The notes below the pieces were generated by a model, which was given only the letters and a program-made list of their open reading frames with translations, had not been told where the DNA came from and did no database searches. From an archaeon (GTDB lineage Archaea > B1Sed10-29 > WALL01): 61,128 nucleotides of DNA. The position numbers were made by a program, and so were the translations under genes. Of the stretch, positions 4,658 to 61,128 are shown in pieces (position 1 is the first letter of the stretch; every line of letters starts with the position of its first letter). The DNA lies in NCBI GenBank assembly GCA_042584585.1, contig JBHOSQ010000007.1:1-61128 (forward strand). Reading direction: 5' to 3'.

Positions 4658-4698
4658 TGGCCTCTAGGGGGGCGTCGATTGACGCCCCCTAAGTCCTT
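4658..4698. repeat. 41-bp GC-rich hairpin element, copy A
   Basis: TGGCCTCTAGGGGGGCGTC-GATT-GACGCCCCCTAAGTCCTT; 34/41 identical to 12317-12357. Confidence 0.8.
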
Positions 4699-43007: not shown

Positions 43008-43042
43008 ACGGGAGAAAGTTTTTCTTTGTTTTGTTTAAAAAG

Positions 43043-44079: not shown

Positions 44080-44142
44080 AATCATTGTTTTGAAGCCACG
44101 ACAATAAAAGCTTTTTAAAGAAAGGGTTGCAATAATTAGTAC

Positions 44143-44412
44143 ATGGCCAAGGTAGTTGAAGAAAAGAAGGAAGAACGGGGTAAGCTCCCCCCTGGGTTTC
44201 CAACTCCACTACGGGAGATAGTTTCCATAACCCCAAAAAAGATTCTGGAGAACATGAGGACGTTTAGAGTGGGGGAAAAGGTTCAGCGATACTTCTCGAG
44301 CGGGAAGGGGTTCAGGTACAGCTTGGACACAAACGACAAAAGAGTAATCGAGTGGATGGGCCCAGTGAAGCAGATGGAACAGAAAAAGGGCATGTTGGGC
44401 TACTTGGACTAA
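44143..44412 (+). CDS. Hypothetical protein (89 aa)
   Basis: ORF with TATA (TTTTTAAA) about 25 nt upstream. Confidence 0.55.
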   Translation: MAKVVEEKKEERGKLPPGFPTPLREIVSITPKKILENMRTFRVGEKVQRYFSSGKGFRYSLDTNDKRVIEWMGPVKQMEQKKGMLGYLD

Positions 44413-44415
44413 GGC

Positions 44416-44793
44416 CTAGTAAGCCTCTATTTCCCTTACTGGAATCCCGAGCGACTTTATTTCCGCGATTTCTTTTTCAGCCATTTTGCCGCGCTTAAGC
44501 ACAACAATTTCTTTTACTTTTTCCCGCTTGGCAATCATGGGAATCTTTTCTTTGATGCTGCCCCACTCGTTGTAAATCTTTGAGCGCTTGCCGAACGAGT
44601 GAAGCATTTCGTCGATTTCTTTGAGCATTGTTTCCTTGTCGTCCAAGTTGGCCTGCATCTCCCCCGCCGTTAGGCCGGACGACTGGTCAATCAAGTAAAC
44701 GACGACGGTCAAGTCGGCCTGCCCGGCAGCCTCCAACAAAAACGATTTTTTCCACTCCAAGCCAGTAATGACAGGGATAAGAACGTTAGGCAA
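44416..44793 (-). CDS. UspA-like alpha/beta protein
   Basis: Start TTG 44793: MPNVLIPV...VVVYLID...WGSIKEKIPMIAKREKVKEIVV. Confidence 0.55.
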   Translation of the reverse strand: MPNVLIPVITGLEWKKSFLLEAAGQADLTVVVYLIDQSSGLTAGEMQANLDDKETMLKEIDEMLHSFGKRSKIYNEWGSIKEKIPMIAKREKVKEIVVLKRGKMAEKEIAEIKSLGIPVREIEAY

Positions 44794-45484
44794 GCGCGTA
44801 CACGCCCTCGCGCTTTTCGATGACGTCGCCCGACTCGCGGAGCACTTCGATGACCGTCCGCACAAGGCCTTCTTCCTCGCCGCACGCCGAAACTATTTCG
44901 GGCAAAGTCTTTTCCTTGTCGAGCGCCGAAGTTATTTTTGCGCCCACTGTTTCCACGGCGTCGCTCGTGGTGATATACACTTTTTTGTCGAACCCGCGCA
45001 CGCTCACCACCTCGCCGTTTTTTACTTCGTTCTCCAGCTTGGACAACACGTCCTTCGCGCGGTCAAGCGAGTCGATGGCCAAGTATTTTTGCTGGCCGAG
45101 CGGGCTTTTGGCGGGCTTTTCGCCGGACGCGAGGAACGAATAGTGGTCCCGGGAAATCGAGTACACGCCATTGTCCTTGTATTTGCCGCCCTCGTAGAAC
45201 TGCACGGCGCCTTTTTTCACCAGGCGGCCAAGGGTTTTTTGCTCGGGGTCTGACAGCGCGTTGCGCACGGTGTCTTTGGTGCGCTGCGCGAACTTGATTT
45301 CGTTCAGCTTTTTGAGGACCGCGAGCTCGTCGCTTGAGACGGCGCTGGACTTGCGGAGCCCTGCCAGTTCCTTGTCCAGTAATTCAAAGGAAACGGCGTC
45401 GCCTTGGTCGAGGGACAGTGCCTTGGCTACGTCTTCGGGAATCACGACCCAGAGCTCTCTCCCGCGCTGCTCGACTCTTGGCAC
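44786..45484 (-). CDS. AbrB/MazE-like N-domain + winged-HTH protein
   Basis: LWVVIPEDVAKALSLDQGDAVSF; C-terminal LPEIVSACG...VIEVLRESGDVIEKREGVY. Confidence 0.7.
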   Translation of the reverse strand: MPRVEQRGRELWVVIPEDVAKALSLDQGDAVSFELLDKELAGLRKSSAVSSDELAVLKKLNEIKFAQRTKDTVRNALSDPEQKTLGRLVKKGAVQFYEGGKYKDNGVYSISRDHYSFLASGEKPAKSPLGQQKYLAIDSLDRAKDVLSKLENEVKNGEVVSVRGFDKKVYITTSDAVETVGAKITSALDKEKTLPEIVSACGEEEGLVRTVIEVLRESGDVIEKREGVYALA

Positions 45485-45537
45485 GAAGAGGGTTATGATG
45501 GGCAGGATTTATATACATTCTATTAGTATAGGAGAGC

Positions 45538-47277
45538 ATGAAGCGCGGACAGGGCTCTCTTGAGTATTTACTAATACTGGCGGCGATTTTGGCCATTGGC
45601 GTGGTCGTCGTTATTGTGGCGAACAGCATGCTTTCCGCCCCCTCCGGGCAGGTTGGGCTGCAGGAAAGCAAGTACGAATGCGCCATCGCGGGCATTGAAT
45701 TGATTGGGTACCATGCCGTGTACCAGGGCGCGACAACAATCGGGGAGACTGGGCCGAGCGCAATTACGTTCACGGACAGCATGGGCGTGCAGCAGCGGCT
45801 GCAGTACAACAACGGGCTTTTTGTTGACGAGGACCCCTTGGCCTATGGCGATGTCGCGTGCAACATTGGGGAGCACACGCTTTACGTTAACAGGGACAAC
45901 CTCGCGGCTTATTTGTCGGGTGGGTCGTACTTGTCGCTCACGCCGTACAGGCGATTGTCGCCGATGCAAATAACAGTGGTCACCAACGGCGAAATCGACG
46001 GCACGAAGTTGACGCGTGAGGGAACAAAAGCAATCAACGACGCGATTGCTGGCAAGATTGGCACGTTTGACGCCAAAACAATCGAAGACGATTACACTGA
46101 CGAAAGCGGGCTCCTTGAGGAAGAAGAGCTCGGGCTGGACATCGAAGAAGACTTGAAGCCAATGGCCGCGGGCGCTCCGGTTTCCGGCGGGCCGGTGATG
46201 TGCGGCGACACGTTCACTTTGAGCGAGGGGGAGAGCGCGTACTTCCCGGGCTTCAGCATGAAGTTTTGGAGCGTCAATTCCACTTACGTCCCGTCGAGCC
46301 CGTACATAATTTATCTTGAGTACGGTGGAACTAACGACACCCTAAGCGCAGGAGAAGAGGTGCTTGGCGCGCACAGGTTCCATGTGTCCAGTACCAGTCA
46401 CGGGGGAACGACTCCTTCGTCCGCGACCTTCACGGTCACTAGAATTCACCAGGCCGCGAAAGACGTTACTTTCGAACTTGACACGAAGTGCATGCCCGAG
46501 GCAACGGGTATAGTGGACATTGTCCTCACGCGGAGCGGCACTGTTGACACTCCTGGGCAGTCACCAATTGTGAGCTACACTCTCGACGAGACGCCGAAGT
46601 CTACTAAGACTGGGCTGGCGGAATGGACTGATGACTTAGGCTACTCCGTGAAGATTGAGAGCAGCGGCTACGCGGGCACAACCGGGCTAAGCATTGCCGA
46701 GTTCACTGTGATGGACACTAACGCAAACAGCATCGCGCCGGAGTGCGGCGACGAGTTCGCGTTGGTGAACGGCCAGACCGCGCGCATTCTCGCGGGCAGC
46801 ATAAAGCTCTTGAACGTCGCCAAATCTAACACACCCGGAAAGCCGGGAAACGCGACAATCGACTTCGCCGGCACGACCCACACCCTTGATGTTACCGGAA
46901 CAAAACGGATTGGCGCGTATGACGTGACCATAACTGAAGGCGGCTACAGCGGCGTGAGCAAGCATTCGGACGCAACGTTCAAGGCAACGCGGGTGCACTC
47001 GATTGTGCTTGGGGAAACGTTCGAGCTGGACAGCAAGTGCATGATGAAGGCCGAGACCCCTGCGATGAACATGTCGTTCACCAAGGTTGTCAAGACCGGG
47101 GACCCCAAGGCCCCCAATATTGTCGAGTACTTCGTGAACGGCGCGATTCCGCCAATCCACGCGGGCGTCGGCGCCATTAACTCGACGGGCGGGTACGACA
47201 TCGGGGTGATGTCTGCGAGCGCTGACGGGACGACTGGGCTTGCCAAGGCAACGTTTAACGTGACCCTGTCCGTTTAA
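45538..47277 (+). CDS. Class III signal peptide surface protein A: conserved N-module + four ~90-aa beta-rich repeats (ABAB)
   Basis: MKRG/QGSLEYLLILAAILAI; repeats CGDTFTL/CGDEFAL and TFELDTKC/TFELDSKC. Confidence 0.85.
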   Translation: MKRGQGSLEYLLILAAILAIGVVVVIVANSMLSAPSGQVGLQESKYECAIAGIELIGYHAVYQGATTIGETGPSAITFTDSMGVQQRLQYNNGLFVDEDPLAYGDVACNIGEHTLYVNRDNLAAYLSGGSYLSLTPYRRLSPMQITVVTNGEIDGTKLTREGTKAINDAIAGKIGTFDAKTIEDDYTDESGLLEEEELGLDIEEDLKPMAAGAPVSGGPVMCGDTFTLSEGESAYFPGFSMKFWSVNSTYVPSSPYIIYLEYGGTNDTLSAGEEVLGAHRFHVSSTSHGGTTPSSATFTVTRIHQAAKDVTFELDTKCMPEATGIVDIVLTRSGTVDTPGQSPIVSYTLDETPKSTKTGLAEWTDDLGYSVKIESSGYAGTTGLSIAEFTVMDTNANSIAPECGDEFALVNGQTARILAGSIKLLNVAKSNTPGKPGNATIDFAGTTHTLDVTGTKRIGAYDVTITEGGYSGVSKHSDATFKATRVHSIVLGETFELDSKCMMKAETPAMNMSFTKVVKTGDPKAPNIVEYFVNGAIPPIHAGVGAINSTGGYDIGVMSASADGTTGLAKATFNVTLSV

Positions 47278-47331
47278 CGGGGTTATTTTAAATATCTGCA
47301 AAGCAATAGCTATAGCCAAGGTGGTTTTTCT

Positions 47332-50300
47332 ATGAAAAAGGCACAAGGCTCTCTCGAATACTTATTGATTCTCGCGGCAATCCTCGCGATTGGCGTGGTA
47401 GTGATTCTCATCGCGAACACCGTCATTGCTGGCCCAGCGGCACAGACCGGGGTCCAGGAAGGCAAGTACGCGTGCGCGATTGCGGGTTTTGAGCTCGTTG
47501 GCTACAACTCAGTGTACCACGGAGTGGACTCCATCGGGGAGACCGGGCCATCAGCCATAAAGTACACCAGCCCAAGCGGCGTGGAAATGAACCTACCATT
47601 CCCCACAGACCCTTACGTGGTCGAGGGAGAGGAAGAAGGCGGAGAACTTGATATCAATGAATTCGCCGAATACGCGTGTACATTGCCCGGTACCGACGCC
47701 ACAGGTGGGAGAGAGGGATACAAAATTTATGTTAACTACGAGGACCCAGTGGTTTACCTCGAGGGGTCGTGGATAGCGGCCACACCCGGCGGAAGGATTT
47801 CCCGGCTTGAGGTAAGCGCGGCAACGGACGTTAACGGCTTAACCCTATCGAAAAACGACCTCGTTCAAATGGACGCCACCTTAAGAGCCATTGCAGAGAA
47901 AGAGGGAGTAGACACTGGCAAGACCGGCACGGGATTCATGAATTCGTTAACCGAAAAAATCGGTGTCGCCCCGGCAGCAGGTGCGCCGGCAACCATCAAA
48001 ATCGCGGAAGCCAGCAAAGGCATCACCATCGACCAACTAGAGCAATTCGGCGTAGACAAGCCAATCACACTCACGACTGCGGCGGACGGCACGCTTCAGG
48101 GAAGCAAAATCACGGGCATAACCACCCCCAGCGGCATTGGGGACTTTTCTGGAATCACAAGCGTTGTTTACGGCCAAAAGTATAGCGTGGGCGAGTCGTT
48201 CACGTGGAGCGGGGCCAAGGTAACAGTCGAGGCGATTAACCCGGCCAGCTCAAAGAGCAGTGCGTACGTCAGCTTTGACGTCGACTCGACGAGTGGCAGC
48301 ACACAGTACGCCGACGGGTCCTCGTGCGACACCAGTACCGGCGAGGCTTACTGCAAGATTGAGCTGGCCAACGACTGGCTTGCGTACAACTGGGACTGGG
48401 ACAACAGCAACGCAAACTCCATTACATTGGTTTCTGACTTGACGTTCGTGGAAAAGACTGGGCTGCTTGACGCCGAGACCAAGCCCATGAGCGGCGGGGC
48501 AGACGGGTGCTTGCTCACTCCGTTGTTTAAGACCGCGACGTTCACCGCCAGCGGAAACACGTTCAAGATTGACGATGCTGCGTTCATTTCGAACGCTCCC
48601 GCGACCAGTTTTGTGCAGATTGACGGCAAAAAGTATTACTTCACGAACTACCAGGCAGTATCCAACCCGGAAGCGGTTTACAACGGGTTCGTCACGAACC
48701 CGGCGTTCCCAATTCAGGCGATTAAGCAGACGTTTGCGCTGCCGGTGCCGTTGACTGCGAAGACCACTTCGTTGACTGGGCTTGGCACGCTTCCGCTGGA
48801 CGCCAGCACCTTGGGCACCAGCAGCTCTGGGAGCACTGGCACGGACGACGCCAACACCGGGATAACGACTTACGGCGGGAAGACGGGCGCCGTGCAAATA
48901 GACACTGGCTCGGTGATTAGCACCGTCAATGTGGCTGTCGAGATTCACTTGGACTACACTGACGCCGTGTACATCAATGACGGCGCGTGCGGCGGCGGAG
49001 CGTCCGGCACGCCGGCGGCAATGGCTGCGCTGGAGGCGGGAAACTGCTTCAAGCTGGGTGGCAATACGTTCGAAATCTACAGCATATACTTCAAATCCTC
49101 GGACATGCCAAACTACCGTGGGAGCTACATTAAGCTGAAGACGCCAAGCGCGATAACACCCACAATCTACACAATGTCCAATGCAGTGGCAGTCACCAAC
49201 CCAACCAGCACGACGTACACAGGATTCAACAGCGCGGCAAGCGGAGCCGCAGTCACCAAAGACACACTGTCGCTAAGCAGCCCCATCGGCGCAATCACCG
49301 CCGTCACCCACATGACAAACGGCGACTTCATGAGCACGACCACAAACGACGTGGCATACATTGAAGGCGCGACAAAGGTGACGTGCCCTGCAACGCCGCA
49401 GCCGATTGGTGGCACGACTGTGCTGACGCCGGGGCTTGGCAATAATTTCTTGATTAAGGACGGCGAGACTGCGCAGTTCACGAGCATGTCAATAATGCTT
49501 TGGGACGTCGCGCAGGGGACTCCCCCCGCGCCGTTCGTGACGAATGGGATAGCAAACTACAGCATTCCTGTTGGCACAACCAAGACCATTTCCAACCACA
49601 ACGTGACCGTGACGAACGCGTCGGCGACCGGTGGCATTTCACCGGGCTGGGCGTTGATGACGGTCATCAGCTCTTCGATATGCGGCAACGGCGTTATCGA
49701 GGGCTGGGAAGCGTGTGACACCGGCACTTCGAACAGCAACACGACTGCCAACGCGTGCAGGCTGAACTGCGTGAACTACTACTGCGGCGATGGGGTCAAG
49801 GACCCGGCGGGCGGTGAAGAGTGTGACGACGGCGGCCGCGCCAACGGAGACGGTTGCGACCAGTCCTGCAAGGTTGAGGCTGCCACGTCAGTATCACAGC
49901 AGAGGCAGTTTGGGCAAGTGGCTTCCGCGTATCTGGTGTTGAACGCCAGCACGGGTTCGTTTAACGACGGCACGTCGTATCGCCTGTCGGAGACAATCAC
50001 AGTGGGCTCAAATGTTATCTTGAACAACGGGACTACAGGCCCGTACTTCACGAACACGGGGAGTCAGATGATTAAGTACCATCTTGACTTCATCGACAAC
50101 TTGTTGTATTCCAACTGGACGTATTCGTCGAGCAATCCGACTACCATGCTGCTTTTGGGAGAGACTTACACAGTCGGCAACATTACCGTCAACACCCTAA
50201 ATATCAAGAAACAGGGGTGGAGTAACTGGCTCACTCTGGTTGACAATGACTACTTTTCGGCTGCCCACATCTGGAAGGTCAACATACAGCTTTCCGGCAG

Positions 50301-51408
50301 CAGCAATGAGTACATTGACTACATCGACCTCTACCTGAACAAGAACTACGCCACGGCCGACAACGTGAACAAGATAACCGGACCACACAGCTACTTCACG
50401 GTCGAGGGCACATCGGACGCCAAAATCACGCTCACGCTTGGGACGCCAATAGCTCCAACTCCAACCGCGACGCCCACACCGACTCCAACGGCGACGCCTA
50501 CCCCAACGCCTGCGCCACCAGTGTGCGGCAATGGAGTGCTTGAAGGGCTTGAGCAGTGTGACGACGGGAACAACAACAGCAATGACTGGTGCCTCAGCAC
50601 GTGCAAGAACAGCACGTGCGGCGACGGGTTCAGGTGGTACGGGGTCGAGCAGTGCGACAACGGCACTTTGAACAGCAACACTGTCGCGAACAGGTGCAGG
50701 ACTGACTGTACGAACCCCGCCTGCGGCGACGGAGTAGTGGACATTTACGAAGAGTGTGACGATGGCGGCACCGCCAACAACGACGGGTGCAACCAGTACT
50801 GCAAGAAAGAAACCGCGACCCCAACGCCGACAGCGACGCCGACCCCAACTCCATCGGCGACACCAACGCCCATCCCGGCTTTCTGCGGTGACGCAAAAGT
50901 AGAGGGCGCCGAGCAGTGTGACGACGGCAACCTCCAGACCAACGACGACTGCGTGAACTGCAAGTGGGCCGTTTGTGGAGATGGGTTCTTGTTCACCAAC
51001 GGCGGAAGCGAGCAGTGCGAGCCACCGAACACCGCAACGTGCGACCCGGCCTGCAGGACCAAGCCAACCTGCACCAACAAGTGCATCAACGGCGACAAGC
51101 GCTGCACAACCAACGGCCTCGGCGTCGAGACGTGCAAGGACTGGAACAACGACGGGTGCACCGAGTGGCTGGCCACCCAGACGTGCGGCACCGGAAGCTG
51201 TGAAGGCACGTGCCTGTTTGTGTGCATCAATGGCGGAAACAGAATGTGCACCATATCGAGCGGCACAGCCGCGTGCGAGACAGTCGCGTGCGACTGCTGC
51301 GCTGGAGTGCCGATAGTCACGGCCCAGCCCACAGCGATGCCGACGCTGGCGCCAATCGCGCCGACCACACAGCCAATCGCGCCAACGCCGTGGTACCAAT
51401 TCTGGTAA
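47332..51408 (+). CDS. Class III signal peptide surface protein B (1358 aa): N-module, beta domains, S-layer-like segment, DUF4215-type Cys repeats, PT linkers
   Basis: MKKA/QGSLEYLLIL; CGNG/CGDG...E.CDDG repeats; MLLLGETYTV segment; PTPTATP linkers. Confidence 0.85.
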   Translation: MKKAQGSLEYLLILAAILAIGVVVILIANTVIAGPAAQTGVQEGKYACAIAGFELVGYNSVYHGVDSIGETGPSAIKYTSPSGVEMNLPFPTDPYVVEGEEEGGELDINEFAEYACTLPGTDATGGREGYKIYVNYEDPVVYLEGSWIAATPGGRISRLEVSAATDVNGLTLSKNDLVQMDATLRAIAEKEGVDTGKTGTGFMNSLTEKIGVAPAAGAPATIKIAEASKGITIDQLEQFGVDKPITLTTAADGTLQGSKITGITTPSGIGDFSGITSVVYGQKYSVGESFTWSGAKVTVEAINPASSKSSAYVSFDVDSTSGSTQYADGSSCDTSTGEAYCKIELANDWLAYNWDWDNSNANSITLVSDLTFVEKTGLLDAETKPMSGGADGCLLTPLFKTATFTASGNTFKIDDAAFISNAPATSFVQIDGKKYYFTNYQAVSNPEAVYNGFVTNPAFPIQAIKQTFALPVPLTAKTTSLTGLGTLPLDASTLGTSSSGSTGTDDANTGITTYGGKTGAVQIDTGSVISTVNVAVEIHLDYTDAVYINDGACGGGASGTPAAMAALEAGNCFKLGGNTFEIYSIYFKSSDMPNYRGSYIKLKTPSAITPTIYTMSNAVAVTNPTSTTYTGFNSAASGAAVTKDTLSLSSPIGAITAVTHMTNGDFMSTTTNDVAYIEGATKVTCPATPQPIGGTTVLTPGLGNNFLIKDGETAQFTSMSIMLWDVAQGTPPAPFVTNGIANYSIPVGTTKTISNHNVTVTNASATGGISPGWALMTVISSSICGNGVIEGWEACDTGTSNSNTTANACRLNCVNYYCGDGVKDPAGGEECDDGGRANGDGCDQSCKVEAATSVSQQRQFGQVASAYLVLNASTGSFNDGTSYRLSETITVGSNVILNNGTTGPYFTNTGSQMIKYHLDFIDNLLYSNWTYSSSNPTTMLLLGETYTVGNITVNTLNIKKQGWSNWLTLVDNDYFSAAHIWKVNIQLSGSSNEYIDYIDLYLNKNYATADNVNKITGPHSYFTVEGTSDAKITLTLGTPIAPTPTATPTPTPTATPTPTPAPPVCGNGVLEGLEQCDDGNNNSNDWCLSTCKNSTCGDGFRWYGVEQCDNGTLNSNTVANRCRTDCTNPACGDGVVDIYEECDDGGTANNDGCNQYCKKETATPTPTATPTPTPSATPTPIPAFCGDAKVEGAEQCDDGNLQTNDDCVNCKWAVCGDGFLFTNGGSEQCEPPNTATCDPACRTKPTCTNKCINGDKRCTTNGLGVETCKDWNNDGCTEWLATQTCGTGSCEGTCLFVCINGGNRMCTISSGTAACETVACDCCAGVPIVTAQPTAMPTLAPIAPTTQPIAPTPWYQFW

Positions 51409-51467
51409 GGCCCCTCGGCAGGCTTTACCCCCACCCCCTTTTTATTTAGTTTTCCCTAACGAATAGT

Positions 51468-52658
51468 GTGCAGAGCATATGCATTAAGTGCAAGGGGACT
51501 AGGTTTCTCTGCGGCAAGCCCGTGTGCCCACGCGTGGAAAAGGCCAGGGTACTGGGCAAGTACAAGCCAGTCAAAAAAGAGATTAGCGGCGAGTCGCCCA
51601 GCGTGTTCGTGGGAAGGTACGGGTACCCGCGCGTGCAGGCAGGGCCAATGATTTCTCCGTACGGCGAGGCGAGCGATTCTCCAGAGGAGTGGTATGGCAC
51701 TCCACTGACAGAAATCATGGAGATGAGATACCGGCTCGTGCGGACCAAGGAGCCTCTTTCTGTTTTCGCGACGAACCCGTCCCGGGACTTGCAGGAGATG
51801 CAGGACATTTCGATGAGCGTGCGCAGCGTTGACACGGAGGCAAAGTTTTCTCGGGTCAGCGCCATGCCTTCGTTTGACTCGAGCCACGCGCCTTTTGGCC
51901 AAACGGGCGTGCTCGAAAAGTTTCGGACAACGGAAAACGCGAAGATCCCGCGAAAAGTGGACGCCGTTGTCAGCGACGAATTGAAGGCGGCGGACCAAAT
52001 CCAGAAGATGTACGACAAGGACGTCGCCGTCAGTCAATTATCAAGAATCATGTCCGTGGGGTTGTTGGGCATCGAAAAGAAGATGGTGCCGACGCGGTGG
52101 AGCATCACTGCGACGGACGACACGATTGGCAAGCAAATGATTGAGGAAATCAAGGACTATCGGGACTTGGACGAGCACTTGCTGTTCAGCAATACGTATT
52201 TGGGGAATCACTTTGAAGTTCTTCTCGTGCCGGGGAATTGGTGTTTCGAGAACGTGGAGGCGTGGATGCCGGGGAACATTTGGCTGGACAGCACGGCGGA
52301 CCCGGAGTTCGCGAAGGATTGGGAGCCGTACGAGGGAAGGAAGAAGTACGCGGACAGCGTGACGGGGGCGTATTATTCGGCGCGGCTCGGGGTGCTTGAA
52401 TATCTGAAGAAGATTAAGCGCCAGGCGGGCGCGATTGTGTTCAGGGAGATTACGCCGGATTACTGGACGCCGGTCGGTGTGTGGCAGATTCGCGAGAATG
52501 TGCGTGCGGCGATGAAAGAACAGCCCGTGAAGTTCCAGACACTGGCTGAAATGCTTGACGAAGTCGGCCGCAGAAGCACTAGCCGCGTGTGGGAGAAGCA
52601 GAGCGAGTTGCTGCACCGCTTCCGCTCACGAGAGATAATGCGGAAGTACTTGTCCTAA
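51468..52658 (+). CDS. nreA: Nre family DNA repair protein
   Basis: CIKCKG...LCGKPVCP, SPSVFVGRYGYP, VPTRWSITATD, GAYYSARL, PVGVWQIRE. Confidence 0.9.
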   Translation: MQSICIKCKGTRFLCGKPVCPRVEKARVLGKYKPVKKEISGESPSVFVGRYGYPRVQAGPMISPYGEASDSPEEWYGTPLTEIMEMRYRLVRTKEPLSVFATNPSRDLQEMQDISMSVRSVDTEAKFSRVSAMPSFDSSHAPFGQTGVLEKFRTTENAKIPRKVDAVVSDELKAADQIQKMYDKDVAVSQLSRIMSVGLLGIEKKMVPTRWSITATDDTIGKQMIEEIKDYRDLDEHLLFSNTYLGNHFEVLLVPGNWCFENVEAWMPGNIWLDSTADPEFAKDWEPYEGRKKYADSVTGAYYSARLGVLEYLKKIKRQAGAIVFREITPDYWTPVGVWQIRENVRAAMKEQPVKFQTLAEMLDEVGRRSTSRVWEKQSELLHRFRSREIMRKYLS

Positions 52659-53483
52659 TTACTTCTTTTTCGCGCTGTTCATGCGCCGCAAGTGCTCCAT
52701 CGTGGGCTGGTGGAACGCTTCCTTGCCGATTCGCTCGTCCTTAGGGTTGTCGATGAACGCGTAACTCCCCTTTTCGTAGCCCCCCACCTTTATTATCGGC
52801 GTATCCACGTAGCTCGAACCACCGACCGCCAGAAGGGCGTGGTCAAGCCTGTGAGCGCGCTCGAACATGTGATTGAACAAGTTTTTTTCATGGAGCTTCG
52901 AAAGCGTGTTCCTGAAGCCCATCTCGAGCATAGTCCTATCGCGGGAAGTGTCTTTTTGGATTCCCTCGGCGAGCCTCAATAGCCTCTGGTCCAAGACCTC
53001 TTGGACTTCTTTGGTGGAACCGAGTTTGGACAATACGCTGACTCCTTGTTCATGCGCGCCCCGGATATTGTCAACCTTCTCGATTTCCTTCTCGATGTCT
53101 TTGACTTGGATTTTCCTTTCCTGAAGTTCCTGGAACACAACCCGCATCTCGGGCTTGAGCTCTTCCTCATTGACTTCGGGTTCTGAGAGCAAGTCCCTGT
53201 AACTGTAAAGCTTGGCTTTTGATCTATTCAACGCCTCGCCCAACAAGTGGCTAGAGGCGACGCCGGGCTCCACGCTGATGATGTCTTTCATCTCATTAAG
53301 AATTGAATCATGGGCCTCCCACGGCTTTTCGCTGAGCCCTTCACGCACTTTACTCTGTGAGTACACGAGGTCCATAATGTGTGACTTGGCCACAGCATCC
53401 CTAATACCTGCGGCACTGTCAAGCGGTTCCGTGAGGTAAGTCTTCTCCCCCTCTTTTTCAGTGTAAGTCTTTGCTTCAGCCAA
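52659..53483 (-). CDS. Hypothetical coiled-coil protein
   Basis: 274-aa ORF, TTG start with GGTGG SD-like motif and TATA upstream. Confidence 0.65.
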   Translation of the reverse strand: MAEAKTYTEKEGEKTYLTEPLDSAAGIRDAVAKSHIMDLVYSQSKVREGLSEKPWEAHDSILNEMKDIISVEPGVASSHLLGEALNRSKAKLYSYRDLLSEPEVNEEELKPEMRVVFQELQERKIQVKDIEKEIEKVDNIRGAHEQGVSVLSKLGSTKEVQEVLDQRLLRLAEGIQKDTSRDRTMLEMGFRNTLSKLHEKNLFNHMFERAHRLDHALLAVGGSSYVDTPIIKVGGYEKGSYAFIDNPKDERIGKEAFHQPTMEHLRRMNSAKKK

Positions 53484-53590
53484 TCAAACCACCTGAATAA
53501 TTATTGCTATCTCGGTTTAAAAGGGTTTGCCTCGGCAACCCGTAGCTACTGGCTTTTATATGCTGTTTTCGTATAGTTAGTGGGGAGCAG

Positions 53591-55420
53591 ATGTATTTCT
53601 CGCACAAGAAGCCAAGGCCCCACCAGAAAGAAATGGTGGATGATGTGTACAAATGCGTCAGCGAGCGGAAGCACTTGCTCGCACACGCGCCCACGGGGAT
53701 TGGAAAGACCGCGGCCGTGCTGTCGCCAGCGATTACTTATGCATTGGAGGAAAACAAAGCCGTTTTCTTTTTGACGCCGAAAATCAGCCAACACAAAATC
53801 GCTGTCGAAGAAACAAAAGCGCTCGCAGAAAAGAACAAACTGCAGTTCACCGGCGTGGACGTCGTGGGAAGGAAGTACACTTGCGTCGACCCCATTCTTG
53901 AGTCGGCGGAGCACCACAGCTTTTACGAAATTTGTGCGCGGCGGCGGAAACAAGAGACGTGCCAATACCACAACAACGCCAAAGGCAACACGAAGCGGCA
54001 GAAGGACGCCGCGTCACTCGCGCTCCAAAAAGTTCTCGACAACTACGGCGTGATAAAAACCAATGCAGAACTGTCGGCGGAATGCGCCGAGTTCAAGTAC
54101 GCCGGGAAAAAACACCCGCTTTGCTCGTACGAAATTGCTTTGCAGATAGCGAAGCAAAGCAGCGTCATTGTCTGCGACTATTTTCACGTGCTGTACCCGT
54201 ACATCTCGGGAGGTTTCCTCAAGAACGTGAACAAGACGCTGAAGGACTCGATAGTTATTGTGGACGAGGCACAGAACGTCAGCGAAAGGATACGCAGTAT
54301 TCTCAGCCACTCGCTTGCGCCGTTTACATTGAAGCGCGCGATAAAGGAAGCGGATTTGCTGAAGTCGCCATTGAAAAATAAGCTGGAGAAACTGAAGCGG
54401 GACACAGAAGCCTTGGCGAAGAAAGAGGCGCAGGTAATCAAGCAGAATGACCTGCCGACGTGGGACGAGGACGATTTAGAGGAATTGAAGGCGCTGGGGA
54501 CTGATTACTTGGAGACGACGAACAGGATGAAGTCAGCTTGTTTGTCCATTCACGCGTTTTTGTCGATGTGGCCCGTGGAGTCACAGGAGTACTTGAGGAT
54601 GAGCAACTCCCGCGGCGTGCACCACAACTGTATGGACGCGAGTGTGGCGACCAGCGGGATTATCAACGAGGCGCATTCGGTGATTGCGATGAGCGGGACG
54701 CTCACGCCGCTGGAAATGTACAAGGACTTGCTCGGGTTTGACGAGACGAGGACGGAGTTGCGGCAGTACTTGTCGCCGTTCCCGCGGGAAAACAGGATTA
54801 ACATTATCAGTGACGCGGTGACGACGCGGTACGCGAAGCGCAGCGACGAGCAGTACCAAAAGATTGCGGGCGAGGTCACGAAAGTTGTGGACAGCGTTCC
54901 AGGCAACATAGCCGTGTTTTTTCCGTCGTACCGCGTGATGAGAGAAGTGCTGTTTAATTTCAAGCCGAACAAGCCCGTTTTTTCGCAGAAGGAGCGGAGC
55001 ACGCCGACGCAAACGGCGCAGTTGTTGTCGCAGTTCAGGAACAGCAGGCACTTCGGCGCGGTGTTGTGCGCGGTTGCGGGCGGGTCATTGGCCGAGGGGA
55101 TTGACTATCCGGGGAGGGACTTGATGGCCGCAGTGGTGGTTGGGGTGCCGTTGGCGGAGTGGAGCCTGGAAACGCAGGCATTGATTGAGTATTATGAATA
55201 CAAGTTCGGCTCGGGGTGGAATTACGGGTATTTGTATCCCGCGATGAACCGGGCGATCCAGGCCGCGGGAAGGGTTATCCGCAACGAGGACGACCGCGGC
55301 GCCATTGTTTTCCTGGACGAGCGGTTCAAGTGGGCAAATTACGCCAAATGCTTCCCGAACGACATGGATTTGGTGCTTACGAGGGACCCTGCGTATTGCG
55401 TGGGCGAGTTTTTCCAGTAG
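53591..55420 (+). CDS. xpd: XPD/Rad3-like Fe-S DNA helicase
   Basis: APTGIGKT, four Fe-S Cys, DEAQ, SGTL, FFPSY, EGIDY, QAAGRVIR, DERF. Confidence 0.9.
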   Translation: MYFSHKKPRPHQKEMVDDVYKCVSERKHLLAHAPTGIGKTAAVLSPAITYALEENKAVFFLTPKISQHKIAVEETKALAEKNKLQFTGVDVVGRKYTCVDPILESAEHHSFYEICARRRKQETCQYHNNAKGNTKRQKDAASLALQKVLDNYGVIKTNAELSAECAEFKYAGKKHPLCSYEIALQIAKQSSVIVCDYFHVLYPYISGGFLKNVNKTLKDSIVIVDEAQNVSERIRSILSHSLAPFTLKRAIKEADLLKSPLKNKLEKLKRDTEALAKKEAQVIKQNDLPTWDEDDLEELKALGTDYLETTNRMKSACLSIHAFLSMWPVESQEYLRMSNSRGVHHNCMDASVATSGIINEAHSVIAMSGTLTPLEMYKDLLGFDETRTELRQYLSPFPRENRINIISDAVTTRYAKRSDEQYQKIAGEVTKVVDSVPGNIAVFFPSYRVMREVLFNFKPNKPVFSQKERSTPTQTAQLLSQFRNSRHFGAVLCAVAGGSLAEGIDYPGRDLMAAVVVGVPLAEWSLETQALIEYYEYKFGSGWNYGYLYPAMNRAIQAAGRVIRNEDDRGAIVFLDERFKWANYAKCFPNDMDLVLTRDPAYCVGEFFQ

Positions 55421-55451
55421 CAATAAATAAGAATACTCCCTTAATTACTTC

Positions 55452-56924
55452 ATGAAACGCGCACAGGGCTCTTTGGAATACTTATTGATTCTCGCGGCTA
55501 TTCTTGCGATTGGCGTGGTAGTGGTTTTGGTGGCGAATTCGCTGCTTGGCGCGCCAGCGGCACAAACGGGGCTGCAGGAAAGCAGGTACGCGTGTGCGAT
55601 TGCCGGCGTTGAATTGATTGGCTACAACGCGGCGTACGAGGGCGCGGAAACTATTGGAGAGACGGGGCCGAGCGCAATTACGTTCACGGACAGCCAAGGA
55701 GTCCAGCAAAGGCTGCAGTACAACAACGGGCTTTTTGTTGAGGAGGACCCCATGGCCTATGGTGATCTTGCGTGCACGATAAACTCTCACACGCTTTACG
55801 TCAACCGTGACAACTTGGCGGCGTATTTGTCCGGCGGGTCACAGCTGTCGCTCACAGACGATGGGCGGCTTTCCCCGGCACAGATAACCGTGGTCACCGG
55901 CGGGGCGGTCGACGGCACACAGATAACACGGGCACAGAAAGACGACATTAACGACGTTATCGCCAGCAAGATTGGGCCGTTTGATGCGGGGGATCTTGAG
56001 GAGTTCGTTGACGAGGATGGGGTGCTGGACGAAGAAGAGACGGGAATTGACATTGAAGAAGACGTGGCGCCGCTTGGGGCTCCGGCATCGCCCGGGCAAT
56101 GCAACAAGTGCTTTATGTTGCAGGGCGGCGTGATTTATTACTCGCTTTACAACAGCGGGGAGTACAACTGTGACACAACAATTGTGTCAAGCTGTAACGA
56201 CATATGCTCACTGGGCGACATGGCCGGAACCGGCAGCAACTGCTACCAAAAGGCCACTGGGTGCAACCTTGACTACTGCACAGACGGCCCATGCGACAAG
56301 GACGGCAAGTGCGAGGCCCAGGAAGAGTCGATGTGGTGCCCAGAGGACTGCTGCGGAGAAACGTACAACAAAGGGCAGTATATGTGCAACCTGAACAGCC
56401 CGCCAAAGTACAACGTGTGCTTGGACAGTGACAACGATGGAAAGCTTGACCATGGGCCGACCCTGTCGTGTGGACCGGGCCAGGAATGCACAATCAACGG
56501 GTGCAGGCCCAAGGGGTGTTTGGACTGCTTCAATAACCAGGGCGGGGTGATGTATCAGTCCCTTTACAGTACCGGGAAATACAACTGCGACACATCAATA
56601 ACCTCGAGCTGCAACGACATATGCTCACTGGGCGACATGGCCGGAACCGGCAGCAACTGCTACCAAAAGGCTGGCGGGTGCTTCTTGGACTATTGCACGG
56701 ACGGGCCGTGCGACAAGGACGGCTACTGTGACAGTGAGGAAGAGTGGATGTGGTGCCCAGAGGACTGCTGCGGAGAAACATACAACAAAGGCCAATACTT
56801 CTGCAGCCTGAACAAGCCAGGCGAGTACAACCAATGCCAAGACGCAAACAAAGACGGCAAGCTCGAATGGGGGCCAACTGGCACATGCCTTGGCAGCAAA
56901 TGCTCAATCTATGGCTGCAGGTAG
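55452..56924 (+). CDS. Class III signal peptide surface protein C: N-module + two tandem 139-aa Cys-rich units
   Basis: MKRA/QGSLEYLLIL; N-module closely matches protein A; duplicated Cys-rich unit. Confidence 0.85.
   Translation: MKRAQGSLEYLLILAAILAIGVVVVLVANSLLGAPAAQTGLQESRYACAIAGVELIGYNAAYEGAETIGETGPSAITFTDSQGVQQRLQYNNGLFVEEDPMAYGDLACTINSHTLYVNRDNLAAYLSGGSQLSLTDDGRLSPAQITVVTGGAVDGTQITRAQKDDINDVIASKIGPFDAGDLEEFVDEDGVLDEEETGIDIEEDVAPLGAPASPGQCNKCFMLQGGVIYYSLYNSGEYNCDTTIVSSCNDICSLGDMAGTGSNCYQKATGCNLDYCTDGPCDKDGKCEAQEESMWCPEDCCGETYNKGQYMCNLNSPPKYNVCLDSDNDGKLDHGPTLSCGPGQECTINGCRPKGCLDCFNNQGGVMYQSLYSTGKYNCDTSITSSCNDICSLGDMAGTGSNCYQKAGGCFLDYCTDGPCDKDGYCDSEEEWMWCPEDCCGETYNKGQYFCSLNKPGEYNQCQDANKDGKLEWGPTGTCLGSKCSIYGCR
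56100..56921 (+). repeat. Intragenic tandem duplication, period 417 nt
   Basis: Identical 59-nt block at 56196-56254 and 56613-56671. Confidence 0.85.
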
Positions 56925-56958
56925 CAATACTTAAATACATAAATCCATTAATAGGTTC

Positions 56959-59490
56959 ATGCGACGTGGACAGGGCTCTCTCGAATACTTAATGGTTTTT
57001 GCGGCGATTTTGGCGATTGCAGTTATTGTGGTGCTTATTGCCAATGCTATGCTTGGCGCGCCATCGGAATCAGCGATTTCGGAGCAGGACAAGGCCAATT
57101 TTGCTTTGGCCGGTTTTGACTTAAGGGGCTACGACAAGCCGTTCGACCCAACTGACCCCAAGACCCTGCCACAGGCGATTGTACAGGGCGATAATACTTA
57201 TCTTTATGAAGACGACTTCGGGGACGACTCCACTAAAATCGGTGAATTGACCGACTCCAGCGGGAACACGCACTGGGTTTGGACCTGGGGCGGAGGCGGC
57301 GGGGGAGGCGGCGGTGGCTACACCGTGAAGCCGCCCACAGTGACTCCTACTCCGGAGCCGCCGACTGACTGCACGATTGACACGGATTGTGCGAGTGGCT
57401 ACTTGTGCGTCGCGGGGACGTGCAAGAAAAAGACTGACTTGAACTGCACTTCGAATGATAATTGCACTGGTGGGGAAAAGTGCGTTGACTACGACTGCGT
57501 GCCAGGGTGCGCCGACAGCATCGTGGACGCGTGGGAAGAGTGCGACCCGCCGGAAAGCGCGTGCACGCCTTTGTACGACAGTGACTGCACGTACTGTGAG
57601 GCGGACTGCACGAACATGACACTAATTGGCAACTACTGCGGCGACGGGACTGTTGAGGACATTGAGGAGTGCGACGGCACTAATTTGGACGAGCAGAACT
57701 GCACTTCGATTGGGTTCGTTGGCGGCGGGGCACTTGGCTGTGCGGACTGCCTGTTCAACACGACGCAGTGTGTCCCGGGGATTTGTGGGAACCTGGCGCT
57801 GGAAGGTGGAGAGGAGTGTGACTGGACCACGCCAAAGAACTGCACGCTGCTTGGGCACGACAACGGGACACTGGACTGCAGTGGATGCAGGTACAACGAG
57901 ACGCAGTGTTACAATTATAGTTGCGGGAACAATCTCCAGGAGCCGGGCGAAGTGTGTGACGGGACTGACACACCGGTCGGTTACGCGTGCGCGGTTGACT
58001 GCGGGAGCGAAGCCACGGTGTGCGGCGATGGCTTTGTCAACGGGACCGAGGAGTGCGACAGCACGGCGTTCTGCACGACGAGCTGTTTGTGCAAGACGGG
58101 TTATGAGTCTGTTAACGACGAGTGTGTTTGTGCTTACACGGAACTAGAGTCGTGGGCGACCGGGTTCACTGGCAGCGCAAGTAACTCCAAGTTCCAGGTC
58201 GACCCGGGCGCGGCTTTCGTGGTTGGAGACTTGGACGGCGACGGCGAGATTGAGATTATTCTCCCGGCTTACGGTGAGGGTAAGGTATACGCGTTCCATT
58301 TGAACGGGACGGAATACTGGTCGAATTCCCACGATGGCTCCTACAATTCCGACACTATGCCTGCCGTGGGAGACATTGATGACGACGGCGACCTTGAAGT
58401 TGTTTACGCGGCATGGAGTGGGAGCCTGTACGTATGGAACGGCGATGGGAGCAAGTTCTCTTCGGCGTGGCCGAAGAGCATTAAGCCGTATTACTGGCCG
58501 GTGCTTGGCGACGTTGACGGCGACGGTGATTTGGAAATTGCGGTGTCTGTCTCGGACGGGGTGGAGGTTTACCACCACACTGGCACGGCGCTGGCGAACT
58601 GGCCCAAGCAATTCAGCCTAAATAACCCAACGAACAATAATGTTGCGAACGCGAACTACAAGGCGCCGGCAATTGGTGACCTTGATGGCGACGGCGAAGT
58701 GGAGATCGTCATGACATCGACTCTGTGGATTGGCGCCATCCACGCGAACGGCACCCAAATGAGTGGCTGGCCGCCGAAGTACGGCAGTTCCTCAACAAGC
58801 TACTCACTAAGGAGCCAGCCGGTGATTGCCAATATTGACGGCGACGCTGGCCTGGAAGTGCTGGCGGGCGACGGGAGCTCGAAGATTATCCAAACAACGC
58901 CTTTCCAGAAATCCGACTACTTCGGGCAAGTTTACGCGTGGAACCCTGACGGCAGTAGGGTGACTGGCTGGCCGAAGGACACAAGCTGGTGGATGGAAGT
59001 GGGCCCGGTTGTGGCTGACCTTGACGGCGACGGGATGGCCGAGGTAATGGCCATCACGTACACCAATGGCCATCTGTTGGCCTGGCACGGGAACGGCAGT
59101 GTGGCGAGCGGGTGGAACAAAGACCAGATGCCTGTTTTCCAGCCTTATGCGGTTTCGACCGGCGACATTGACGGCGACGGCGACCTTGAAGTGCTTTCGC
59201 ACCAGGCGCGGTGGGTAAACGGCCGGTGGAAATTAGGCGTAAGCGCGTGGCACCACGACGGGACTGACGTGGACGGCTGGCCTAAAGTTACTGGCAAGGA
59301 CGGGGGCATCCCGGTTGTGCTGTATGACGTGGACGATGACTTCGCGGTCGAAGTGCTGGCGGTTACCGAGGACGGGAACGTGTATGTCTGGGACACTTGT
59401 GCCGGCGGCGGGATTACGCAGATTGGCAGCGGCATCTCTGGAGACGTAGTGACCGGGCCCGGCTCACCGAGCGGACCCATTCAGTTCTAG
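56959..59490 (+). CDS. Class III signal peptide surface protein D: divergent N-module, poly-Gly hinge, Cys repeats, FG-GAP/VCBS propeller
   Basis: MRRG/QGSLEYLMVFAAILAI; CGDG..EECDG repeats; eight D(L/I/V)DGDG-like motifs with GWP turns. Confidence 0.85.
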   Translation: MRRGQGSLEYLMVFAAILAIAVIVVLIANAMLGAPSESAISEQDKANFALAGFDLRGYDKPFDPTDPKTLPQAIVQGDNTYLYEDDFGDDSTKIGELTDSSGNTHWVWTWGGGGGGGGGGYTVKPPTVTPTPEPPTDCTIDTDCASGYLCVAGTCKKKTDLNCTSNDNCTGGEKCVDYDCVPGCADSIVDAWEECDPPESACTPLYDSDCTYCEADCTNMTLIGNYCGDGTVEDIEECDGTNLDEQNCTSIGFVGGGALGCADCLFNTTQCVPGICGNLALEGGEECDWTTPKNCTLLGHDNGTLDCSGCRYNETQCYNYSCGNNLQEPGEVCDGTDTPVGYACAVDCGSEATVCGDGFVNGTEECDSTAFCTTSCLCKTGYESVNDECVCAYTELESWATGFTGSASNSKFQVDPGAAFVVGDLDGDGEIEIILPAYGEGKVYAFHLNGTEYWSNSHDGSYNSDTMPAVGDIDDDGDLEVVYAAWSGSLYVWNGDGSKFSSAWPKSIKPYYWPVLGDVDGDGDLEIAVSVSDGVEVYHHTGTALANWPKQFSLNNPTNNNVANANYKAPAIGDLDGDGEVEIVMTSTLWIGAIHANGTQMSGWPPKYGSSSTSYSLRSQPVIANIDGDAGLEVLAGDGSSKIIQTTPFQKSDYFGQVYAWNPDGSRVTGWPKDTSWWMEVGPVVADLDGDGMAEVMAITYTNGHLLAWHGNGSVASGWNKDQMPVFQPYAVSTGDIDGDGDLEVLSHQARWVNGRWKLGVSAWHHDGTDVDGWPKVTGKDGGIPVVLYDVDDDFAVEVLAVTEDGNVYVWDTCAGGGITQIGSGISGDVVTGPGSPSGPIQF

Positions 59491-59534
59491 CAAAGGCGAT
59501 ACCTTTTTAAGCCAAGCTAGAGTATTCTGGATTG

Positions 59535-60752
59535 ATGCGGAAAATAGAGGTAGCCGTGCCCAAGGGAAAAGGCAAGTGGATTGCCTTTCGTGCCGAGAAG
59601 GCCGGTGCCAACGACGTTATTATTCTTGAGTCCCACGGCCCTGGGGCCAACAGGGAGCTTGTGACGATTACGGCCAACGAAAAAGCCGTGGACGCGATAA
59701 TCAAGAGCATCTCGGAATACGAGGACAAGAAAGGCATCAGGCCCGACATCAGGATTTGGAAGGCCGAAGAGCCGTTCGCGCAGGTCGAGAAGGAAGGCAA
59801 AGAAGAAAGGCGCATTCCGTTCGAGGAACTGAAGGCGCACGCGTACGAGTCCTCGTCGATTGACATTACTTACCTGTTATTGTGTATACTGTCAGGATTG
59901 TTGGCGGCACTGGGCTTGCTCCAGAACAGCGCGATTGTGGTTATTGGAGCCATGATAATCGCGCCACTATTGAGGCCGATTACCACGTCGTCGCTGGGGA
60001 CAGTGACCGGTGACCTGCTGATGTTCTGGCGGGGGGTGTCCGCGCTGGTGATAGGGCTTTTGCTGTCGGGAATAATCGTGTTTTTCGCCATGTTCCTGCT
60101 GCCCATGAGCCAGCCTTCAGAGCTGCTGGCGGCCATCAGCAACCTTAGCCTGCTCACGCTCGGAGTTGCGTTCATCTCCGGGATTATAGCGGCGGTGTCT
60201 CTGCTCACAGACCTCAACGAAGCCCTCGCAGGCGTCGCCATCTCGGTGTCGCTCATGCCTCCGGCGGCCGCGTTGTCCATCAACGTGTTCTTCGCCATGT
60301 TCGGAATAGTCGACTTCAGCGTCGCCATGACCACGCTGCTCGTGCTGATGGTGAACATCATCAGCATAGACATTGGGAGCGCGGTCGTGTTCTACGCTTA
60401 CGGCGTGGCGCCCAAGAAACAGGAAAAGAAGTTCTTGTCCACCCACCTCAAGATTGCAGTGGTGCTGCTGTTCATGCTCAGCCTTCCCTTCGCATACACA
60501 AGCCTCGTGTCCTACCAGAACTCGCAGGCGGAAGTGATCATCCGTGAGGCGGTCAACACCGAGGCAGCGCTCGCGGGCGGAAAAGTCGAGAGGCTGGACA
60601 TACTGTTCGACCCCATCCTGGTTGATGTGAAAATAGTTTCCACGATGCCGCCGCCGGATGGGTACAAGGAAATGGTGGAAAGCCGGATAGAAATGTTCCT
60701 CGGGCAAGGCGTCAGCGTTAGGCTTACCTATGTCCAAGCCGAAGCGGTATAG
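59535..60752 (+). CDS. TIGR00341/DUF389 membrane protein
   Basis: GLLQNSAIVVIGAMIIAPLL, AGVAISVSLMPP. Confidence 0.88.
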   Translation: MRKIEVAVPKGKGKWIAFRAEKAGANDVIILESHGPGANRELVTITANEKAVDAIIKSISEYEDKKGIRPDIRIWKAEEPFAQVEKEGKEERRIPFEELKAHAYESSSIDITYLLLCILSGLLAALGLLQNSAIVVIGAMIIAPLLRPITTSSLGTVTGDLLMFWRGVSALVIGLLLSGIIVFFAMFLLPMSQPSELLAAISNLSLLTLGVAFISGIIAAVSLLTDLNEALAGVAISVSLMPPAAALSINVFFAMFGIVDFSVAMTTLLVLMVNIISIDIGSAVVFYAYGVAPKKQEKKFLSTHLKIAVVLLFMLSLPFAYTSLVSYQNSQAEVIIREAVNTEAALAGGKVERLDILFDPILVDVKIVSTMPPPDGYKEMVESRIEMFLGQGVSVRLTYVQAEAV

Positions 60753-60784
60753 GCTTAAATACCCTGGCTTCGTTATAAACTCAG

Positions 60785-61099
60785 ATGGTGTTTTGCGGAC
60801 TTTGCAAACTAGGCAAGGAGCCAAAGCAAAACTGGTTCATCCAGGAGCACGGAGCTGATTCTCCCGTCAACAAGTTCAAGATTTGTGACGAGTGCGCAGC
60901 CTTGCTCATGCGCGGCATGGCCAAAAAAGTTATGGGCGTAAGGGAAGGGACTTCCCTGCCGGACCCACTCATCATCAGCAAAACAGGCGTCATTGACGAG
61001 ATAGTTCTCAACAACGAAAACGCCCTCGACATCACCATCGCAATCGACATAGGCAAGGCTCGCCGCTGGGTCGAAAAAGAAATCGAAGACACCGAATAG
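60785..61099 (+). CDS. Hypothetical zinc-finger protein
   Basis: CGLC...CDEC; TATA-like motifs upstream. Confidence 0.6.
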   Translation: MVFCGLCKLGKEPKQNWFIQEHGADSPVNKFKICDECAALLMRGMAKKVMGVREGTSLPDPLIISKTGVIDEIVLNNENALDITIAIDIGKARRWVEKEIEDTE

Positions 61100-61128
61100 C
61101 TCACTCTACTTCTAGGTAAGCGGTCGCC

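Follow-up and report, generated by a model that had tools for sequence, protein, structure and literature searches.

Bacterial modular pilins consist of a carrier pilin with a grafted effector module, and more than 1,200 such proteins with 264 architectures have been described (PMC8179133, PMC10191384). In archaea, the EppA substrates of Methanococcus maripaludis have Gly at the end of a short leader, then Gln at +1 and Glu at +5, and this species also encodes larger DUF361 (PF04021) pilin-like proteins, including MMP0600, MMP0601 and MMP0709 (PMC3875500). Archaeal type IV pilus loci are described as containing large class III or "adhesin-like" proteins (PMC4858521, PMC13705601) and DPANN islands as containing divergent pilins (PMC6393860), and the text of a 2026 census describes such filaments as widespread in archaea except Asgard and DPANN (PMC13705601). 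Here we report four genes, A to D, on a 61,128-nucleotide (nt) contig of an Iainarchaeia/Diapherotrites-like DPANN archaeon (NCBI GenBank assembly GCA_042584585.1, contig JBHOSQ010000007.1). This whole stretch, referred to as the window, is contig C7 of genome G000, an assembly of 1,016,689 bp in 32 contigs that is 84% complete and belongs to a class with genome sizes of 0.3-1.3 Mb. We propose that the four proteins are modular type IV pilins that show adhesin domains on, and probably at the tip of, a filament encoded on another contig (C5) of the same genome, and we assign this reading a probability of roughly 0.55.

Open reading frames (ORFs) were confirmed on the forward strand at all four starts given in a preliminary description of this DNA: A at 45538-47277 (579 amino acids, aa), B at 47332-51408 (1358 aa), C at 55452-56924 (490 aa) and D at 56959-59490 (843 aa). 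They are arranged as two tandem pairs, A-B and C-D, with three unrelated genes between them; the span 45538-59490, previously presented as one family, holds the four family members together with these three genes. Scans against Pfam and NCBIfam were carried out at a threshold of E ≤ 0.01, which applies to all domain searches of A-D reported here. PF04021 (Class_IIIsignal) matched residues 2-26 of all four proteins (E 3e-7 to 5e-5), with D scoring 23.6 bits against a cut-off of 23.7 in the window scan and 29.0 bits, above the cut-off, in the genome-wide scan. Each N-terminus opens with a 4-aa leader whose last residue is Gly or Ala, continues with Gln at +1 and Glu at +5, and runs on in ~25 hydrophobic residues. 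All four proteins therefore have the features of the class III signal peptides that the preliminary description had assigned to them. In A, the leader, as read from the ORF, occupies residues 1-4, the alpha1 helix residues 5-50 (45550-45687), the pilin head the sequence up to residue ~135 (45688-45942) and an acidic linker that up to residue 215 (45943-46182), and the payload consists of two beta-rich units of ~180 aa each (46183-47274), all on the forward strand. The signal is thus of the PF04021/EppA type (+1 Gln, 4-aa leader), in contrast to the N-terminal methylation motif (IPR012902) of bacterial modular pilins, which was not found in A-D; the only Pfam match at their N-termini is PF04021. 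Because the methylation motif is absent, A-D represent an archaeal analogue that falls outside the published, InterPro-defined set. The word "archaea" does not occur in the main text of the study of that set (PMC8179133).

PF04021 exceeded its cut-off in exactly eight ORFs of the genome, namely A-D, three on contig C9 and a 121-aa pilin on contig C5 (C5:3658-4023), and a six-frame scan and the PF04021 genome scan concurred on this family. Over their first 62 residues the proteins show 53-81% identity to A, 21 alignment columns being invariant, and all eight have Gly or Ala at -1, Gln at +1 and Glu at +5. The three C9 genes encode tandem modular pilins of 290, 668 and 1569 aa (C9:26818-34671; locus L030, 5819-13672) with type-2 heads, a class defined below, and the 1569-aa protein, C9_1569, contains 10% Cys and has a weak Glyco_hydro_16 match. 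Together, the seven large family proteins amount to 5797 codons, or ~1.7% of the 1.02-Mb assembly. The eighth member, the 121-aa pilin, lies in an operon in which an ATPase gene (1-1470, the contig beginning inside the gene) is followed by genes for a TadC-like platform protein (1474-2745), a second TadC-like platform protein (2747-3604), the pilin and an A24 peptidase (4270-5148; PF01478 and Arc_PepC). The alpha1 helix of A-D is almost identical to that of this pilin, from which we infer that A-D belong to the C5 set.

No prepilin peptidase or assembly ATPase lies in the window, as had been noted, and contig C7 contains no match to PF01478, PF00437 or PF00482. Elsewhere in the genome, an A24 peptidase, an assembly ATPase and a platform protein are all present, in the C5 operon, and a second peptidase was found on contig C3. 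Searches by tblastn with the five C5 operon proteins covered 11 loci in relatives at the levels of genus, family and order, some pairs of these loci being copies of one place, and parts of the gene order were recovered in 10 of them. The arrangement resembles the Epd pilus of M. maripaludis, in which the same type of signal, a dedicated A24 peptidase and two platform genes occur and a small major pilin exists beside several larger pilin-like proteins scattered on the chromosome, as here (PMC3875500). It differs from what is described for that pilus in that the heads and payloads are unrelated in sequence, the small pilin is within the ATPase-platform-peptidase operon, and the payloads are far larger (proteins of up to 1569 aa) and Cys-rich.

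The genome contains other class III-like ORFs. Those at C3:54680, C3:42496 and C5:14542 have helices clearly unlike those of the eight, and four more weak PF04021 matches on C5 were under the cut-off. A second ATPase-TadC-TadC locus was seen on contig C3 (C3:42496-46137 and C3:51774-55132; L031), with a 150-aa pilin of another helix class, and 9 kb upstream of it a 1213-aa class III-like protein carries Laminin_G_3, a ConA-like lectin domain; the C3 locus possibly represents an independent filament system that has a large subunit of its own. On C5, a 1140-aa PKD/Ig-repeat protein adjoins a class III-like protein of 296 aa whose helix is divergent (C5:10152-14542; L029).

Behind the helix, two classes of pilin head were distinguished. 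The preliminary description had posited one conserved adaptor in all four proteins and regarded it as a constant docking module; the sequences speak against a single adaptor and against a new kind of docking device. A, B and C carry a type-1 head, which extends from residue 36 to ~215 (~200 aa with its acidic linker; residues 36-222 in B) and is 71% identical between A and C over 180 aa after the helix and 36% identical between B and A. The motif reported for the shared module is real in A-C, except that C has Arg in place of Lys and B has IYVN in place of LYVN. At the DNA level, A and C are 74% similar across 621 nt from the ATG, where the similarity ends, and B and C are 77% similar across 218 nt. 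D has a type-2 head at residues 30-119 and has in common with A-C the signal, the helix and ~25 more residues, with nothing further. The type-2 head, also present in the three C9 proteins and in relatives, comprises ~90 residues past the helix, lacks Cys and ends in a Gly run; the type-2 unit as a whole measures ~115 aa, followed by the Gly run.

The first ~90 residues of the type-1 head (36 to ~125 of A-C) align with pilins of 105-135 aa from the same order, including a Cys just past the helix, a second Cys ahead of the (L/I)YVN strand and the strand itself. The rest of the module is an acidic, partly helical linker with a Pro/Ala/Gly stretch at its end. Judged by this alignment, what had been termed an "adaptor" is a pilin domain, and its homologues are the small pilins of the order. 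AlphaFold2 (AF2) was run on residues 1-150 of A with a 26-row alignment of heads and small pilins, and the resulting model (mean predicted local distance difference test score, pLDDT, 76.4; predicted template modelling score 0.60) contained helices at residues 6-32 and 36-50, followed by seven strands. By its layout and family context, the model appears to show the helix-plus-beta-sheet lollipop usual for pilins. No known family other than PF04021 matched the type-1 module in Pfam or NCBIfam, and the ESM Atlas yielded no usable match to it by features, with template modelling scores of at most 0.32 by structure. The heads of A-D have no detectable sequence relation to bacterial pilins.

We examined the distribution of the two heads and found type 1 to be very rare. 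A word-indexed search of 5.8 billion proteins with the type-1 head returned A and C and no others, and when 1.84 billion representatives were searched with a type-1 profile, the matches were A and C, a foreign protein of 699 aa (P0004, E 6e-41) and, spuriously, a repeat protein (P0005, E 2.6e-4), with B absent from the returns. None of 40 related genomes contained the full type-1 module; in six of them, small ORFs matched its first 30-90 positions and no more. The type-2 profile matched 13 distinct proteins (267-1569 aa) over its full length, including six that had not contributed to the training alignment, and the carriers stem from this genome, from G002 of the same genus, from G004 of the same family and from other sources. 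A 62-residue N-terminal profile (E ≤ 1e-5) had matches in 30 of the 31 genomes of the class. Beyond this genome there were 107 matches, 34 of which lay in open frames of at least 300 aa, across 16 of the 30 other genomes; these frames run from stop to stop, some being cut by contig ends, and were counted from the search table. This genome tops the class, with seven of its nine profile matches in frames of at least 300 aa. Large class III proteins are common in this class. In genomes G014-G028, from other families of the class, many class III-type N-termini were seen on frames of 300-780 aa, with heads that begin with Cys-rich motifs unlike type 1 or type 2. Fusion of pilin N-termini to large proteins thus seems to be general in the class.

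The 34 of 107 long-frame matches suggest a general export route, and they are a point in favor of an alternative explanation in which A-D are surface-anchored proteins. In such a case, the class III signal and helix would serve export and anchoring alone, and the cleaved proteins would reside in the membrane or in short pseudopilus- or bindosome-like stubs, coating the cell surface instead of a long pilus and still functioning in adhesion or ligand capture. Archaeal substrate-binding proteins provide a precedent, in that class III signals with highly conserved N-termini are found on non-filament proteins (PMC13705601). The size distribution of the family fits as well, since seven of its eight members are large, which would be an unusual ratio of minor to major pilins. 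The architecture of A-D speaks for a different fate, however: a full pilin head, superfluous for a mere anchor, stands between helix and payload, and the helix, including the +5 Glu, is nearly identical to that of the operon pilin. The comparison with the Sulfolobales bindosome also goes both ways. Diverse proteins with a conserved class III N-terminus are likewise thought to use one base machinery there, but the bindosome proteins described are solute-binding and coupled to ATP-binding cassette (ABC) transporters (PMC13705601). A-D have a pilin head and no match to a substrate-binding-protein family or an ABC-transporter domain, and their neighbors are Nre, XPD, DUF389 and HD proteins. Surface anchoring is the chief alternative to the modular-pilin reading, and we hold it to be less probable than that reading.

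The payloads of A-D differ in overall architecture. The two units of A are 31% identical to one another. C contains, as previously described, a duplicated Cys-rich unit, which is a tandem ~137-aa repeat with copies 72% identical and 13% Cys. The payload of B is a 1126-aa mosaic that includes a unit shared with P0004, DUF4215 and myxo_disulf_rpt repeats, Pro-Thr linkers and a Cys-rich C-terminus; its DUF4215 Cys repeats, already named in the preliminary description, were matched in Pfam and NCBIfam. In D, a Gly run and Pro-Thr linker (57286-57360) precede Cys-rich repeats (57361-58143) and an FG-GAP repeat region identified by Pfam (58144-59487), all on the forward strand, in agreement with the reported combination of Cys repeats and FG-GAP. 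The FG-GAP families are the sole propeller-type matches in D.

BLASTP comparisons showed that the Cys-rich repeats of B are related to those of D, of the 668-aa and 1569-aa C9 proteins (C9_668, C9_1569) and of a 1018-aa protein of G002 (G002_1018). D and C9_1569 are 37% identical over 250 aa, and B and P0004 are 34-37% identical over ~190 aa. Identical repeat types were found behind both head classes. The payloads had been called unrelated, which is true of their architectures and not of the Cys-rich repeats common to B, D, C9_668 and C9_1569; as read from these similarities, the payloads are mosaics drawn from a common repeat pool. Relatives carry many different payloads on these heads, with no single fixed one: beta-helix/NosD with MopE, DUF4215-like repeats, fn3, DUF2341, or regions without a Pfam family. 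The layout of modular pilins, in which a linker connects the N-terminal pilin module to an extra module that is not particular to type IV filaments, was found in A-D and in relatives, with DUF4215 in B, FG-GAP in D, Beta_helix/NosD/MopE, fn3 and DUF2341 in relatives, and modules without a Pfam family in A and C. The FG-GAP region of D also recalls PilY1/PilC, the large, tip-displayed beta-propeller adhesins of bacterial type IVa pili, and the "PilY-like" DUF2341 adhesins predicted in archaeal type IV pilus loci (PMC4858521, PMC13705601), and a relative with the same head, P0015, carries DUF2341. PilY1, however, is a non-pilin that docks through minor pilins, whereas A-D bear their own pilin module, and no PilY1/PilC-family match was detected in A-D.

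The composition of the payloads also bears on whether A-D could be envelope or S-layer-type structural proteins, or secreted enzymes, with pilin likeness confined to the signal and no part in adhesion. The ~190-aa unit common to B and P0004 had been taken as S-layer-like, C9_1569 has its weak Glyco_hydro_16 match and the C3 class III protein its Laminin_G_3 domain, and archaeal type IV filament loci often contain S-layer-like proteins (PMC4858521). The scans gave no S-layer match in B, and no S-layer, enzyme or transmembrane-anchor family was detected in any of A-D. FG-GAP, DUF4215 and beta-helix repeats are, according to their family descriptions, typical of binding proteins, and the presence, absence and replacement of these genes among congeners, described below, is unlike the behavior of an essential envelope protein. 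A structural or enzymatic role is accordingly improbable in our judgment.

Comparison with related genomes (G001 and G002 from the same genus; G003, G004 and G005 from the same family) revealed that the two gene pairs occupy variable slots. The A-B slot is bordered on the left by a conserved hypothetical gene, h44786 (44786-45484, reverse strand), and on the right by Nre (51468-52658, forward strand; PF04894 and PF04895), which is outside the pilin family. In the window this slot measures 5.9 kb and contains A-B. In four of five relatives (G001, G003, G004 and G005) h44786 directly adjoins Nre, with 75-226 bp between the matches, and in G002 the slot is filled by a different pair of modular pilins (1018 and 502 aa), which have type-2 heads. 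In G004, from another genus of the family, a 269-aa type-2 pilin is located directly downstream of Nre (G004:C3:2331-3140; L086). The ~130-aa C-terminal domain of this pilin recurs at the end of a 608-aa protein, P0014. The C-D slot lies between an XPD/Rad3-type helicase gene (53591-55420, forward strand), also outside the pilin family, and a gene for a DUF389 membrane protein (59532-60752, forward strand). XPD and DUF389 are 39 bp apart in G002, and in G001 two PIN-domain genes follow XPD before the contig ends (G001:C23:17-1065; L083). The third gene between the two pairs, besides Nre and XPD, encodes a hypothetical protein (52659-53483, reverse strand). A-B and C-D are lineage-specific occupants of variable slots.

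The same comparison bears on whether A-D are an artefact, be it of false ORF calls or of a chimeric metagenome assembly in which a pilin 5' end present in several copies was fused to sequence unrelated to it. The assembly is in 32 contigs and 84% complete, and repeated 5' ends might mislead an assembler. Yet the 5' repeats are only 63-79% identical in DNA, too divergent to collapse, and the frames remain open across 490-1358 codons. G002 is syntenic with the window, its flanking proteins being 72-88% identical, and the head-plus-payload architecture also occurs in independent genomes and in metagenome proteins. We consider an artefact very improbable.

Recent gene conversion between paralogues was rejected, as the 5' ends are never near-identical at their 63-79% identity, and A and C have no upstream similarity. 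Diversification by a diversity-generating retroelement was likewise rejected, there being no match to the reverse transcriptase family PF00078 in the 84%-complete genome. All direct repeats in 43000-61128 are intragenic protein repeats or common 5' ends. As for a mobile-element signature at the slots, only a tRNA-Thr (CGT) gene was found nearby (42935-43007, reverse strand), no search for an integrase having been made; it is located 2.5 kb upstream of A, beyond HD, transglutaminase-like and hypothetical genes. The transglutaminase-like gene is a 173-aa ORF (43564-44085, reverse strand) with a weak transglutaminase-core match (21.7 bits, cut-off 23); it is 72% identical in G002 and overlaps the start of the HD-domain gene by ~135 nt.

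Each of the eight family genes has its own putative A/T-rich TATA-like element 29-50 nt upstream, as read from the sequence; the label follows the archaeal TATA-box consensus. In the window, all on the forward strand, TATA-box-like elements were located at 45508-45515, 30 nt upstream of the ATG of A, and at 47286-47294, 46 nt upstream of B, and A/T-rich TATA-like elements at 55422-55431, 30 nt upstream of C, and at 56930-56944, 29 nt upstream of D. The element of B is part of a promoter-like block of ~32 nt, made up of a TATA-like word and bases downstream of it, that is nearly identical before B, C9_668 and C9_1569 (window 47262-47331; L030 ~6690-6750 and ~8900-8962), which suggests either co-regulation or duplication of a promoter-plus-5' cassette.

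If A-D are modular pilins, they would operate within a putative Epd/EppA-like archaeal type IV filament system of this archaeon. Each precursor consists of the 4-residue leader, the alpha1 helix, a small pilin head, a flexible linker and a large extracellular payload. The A24 peptidase would cut past the Gly or Ala at -1 and expose the Gln at +1, the helix would keep the subunit in the membrane, and the C5 ATPase and platform would polymerise chiefly the 121-aa small pilin. The bulky modular pilins would be incorporated rarely, most likely as initiating subunits and hence at the filament tip, where their Cys-rich, beta-propeller or beta-rich payloads may bind surfaces or partner cells. Since a separate promoter-like element precedes every gene, at least seven different payloads could be available for the cell to select from. 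What the sequences show is the anatomy of the proteins, the homology of their heads to small pilins, a machinery that is present and conserved, the diversity of the payloads and the variability of the slots; cleavage, filament incorporation, tip position and adhesive function of A-D are predictions.

The nearest described counterparts fit this scheme in part. Streptococcus sanguinis PilB and PilC, as presented by Raynaud et al. 2021, likewise have an effector grafted through a short linker onto a pilin module and come in many architectures; the proposed tip site and adhesion role are also alike, and some module types (lectin-like, repeats) overlap (PMC8179133). In the same account, the tip is the first part of the filament to form, growth proceeding toward the base, and it is the only position with which PilB is compatible. 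The type IVb minor pilins CofB and TcpB are comparable in having a pilin module, a flexible linker and beta-rich domains and in being tip-located and filament-initiating; they differ in being bacterial and trimeric, with one per system as opposed to a family of alternatives here, and no sequence relation to them was found (PMC8179133). A-D further differ from bacterial modular pilins in that seven paralogues exist in a 1-Mb genome, several of them in variable slots.

Several points weigh against the modular-pilin reading. The pilin fold is deduced from layout and from homology to uncharacterised small pilins because no significant match in the PDB was obtained: the best Foldseek match of the pilin-module model had an E value of only 0.35, and sequence-profile searches of the PDB gave only chance matches, to G-protein-coupled receptors and antibodies. 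AF2 modelling of the whole type-1 module with four sequences was poor (pLDDT 48). With four ATPase/TadC sets and two A24 peptidases in the genome, what ties A-D to the C5 set is solely N-terminal similarity. Class III signals also occur in archaea on proteins for which no long filaments are known, the sugar-binding bindosome proteins being an example (PMC13705601). The adhesive function is read from domain types alone, and the payloads of A and C match no Pfam family. The case for a position at the tip is an analogy with PilB (PMC8179133), and payloads of 30-150 kDa could not sit in the filament body without long linkers.

The initial observation of four class III proteins with modular architecture is confirmed, and its interpretation is partly supported; of the outcomes named beforehand as refuting it, none came about in full. 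To call them an undescribed system was too strong, given the modular pilins published for bacteria (PMC8179133) and the large class III adhesin-like proteins noted in archaea (PMC4858521, PMC13705601). Three traits are specific to the lineage: its heads fall into a pair of private families, its 1-Mb genome holds a repertoire of seven such genes, and congeners differ through turnover at hot spots. In the literature covered by our searches, we found no description of modular pilins in Iainarchaeia/Diapherotrites.

A more tentative proposal, and one that we hold to be rather doubtful, is that the seven individually promoted modular pilins form a swappable repertoire of tip adhesins that fixes the partner cells or surfaces to which the archaeon can attach, with head-plus-payload cassettes gained, lost and replaced at a few intergenic hot spots, between h44786 and Nre and between XPD and DUF389. 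Such cassette turnover can be likened to the exchange of receptor-binding proteins by phages. If this were true, the partner range of Iainarchaeia would evolve through turnover of cassettes while the pilus machine stayed constant.

DPANN archaea, with their tiny genomes, are believed to rely on contact with other cells or with surfaces; for Diapherotrites, a lesser dependence on hosts than in the rest of DPANN has been proposed. The class III N-termini in 30 of 31 genomes and the parts of the operon order in 10 of 11 loci bear on the census that excluded DPANN (PMC13705601). The way these genes are present, absent or replaced among congeners gives access to the evolution of attachment specificity. 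If the proteins are shown to be on pili, they would provide concrete attachment-factor candidates for a DPANN lineage, and the bacterial "modular pilin" principle would extend to archaea.

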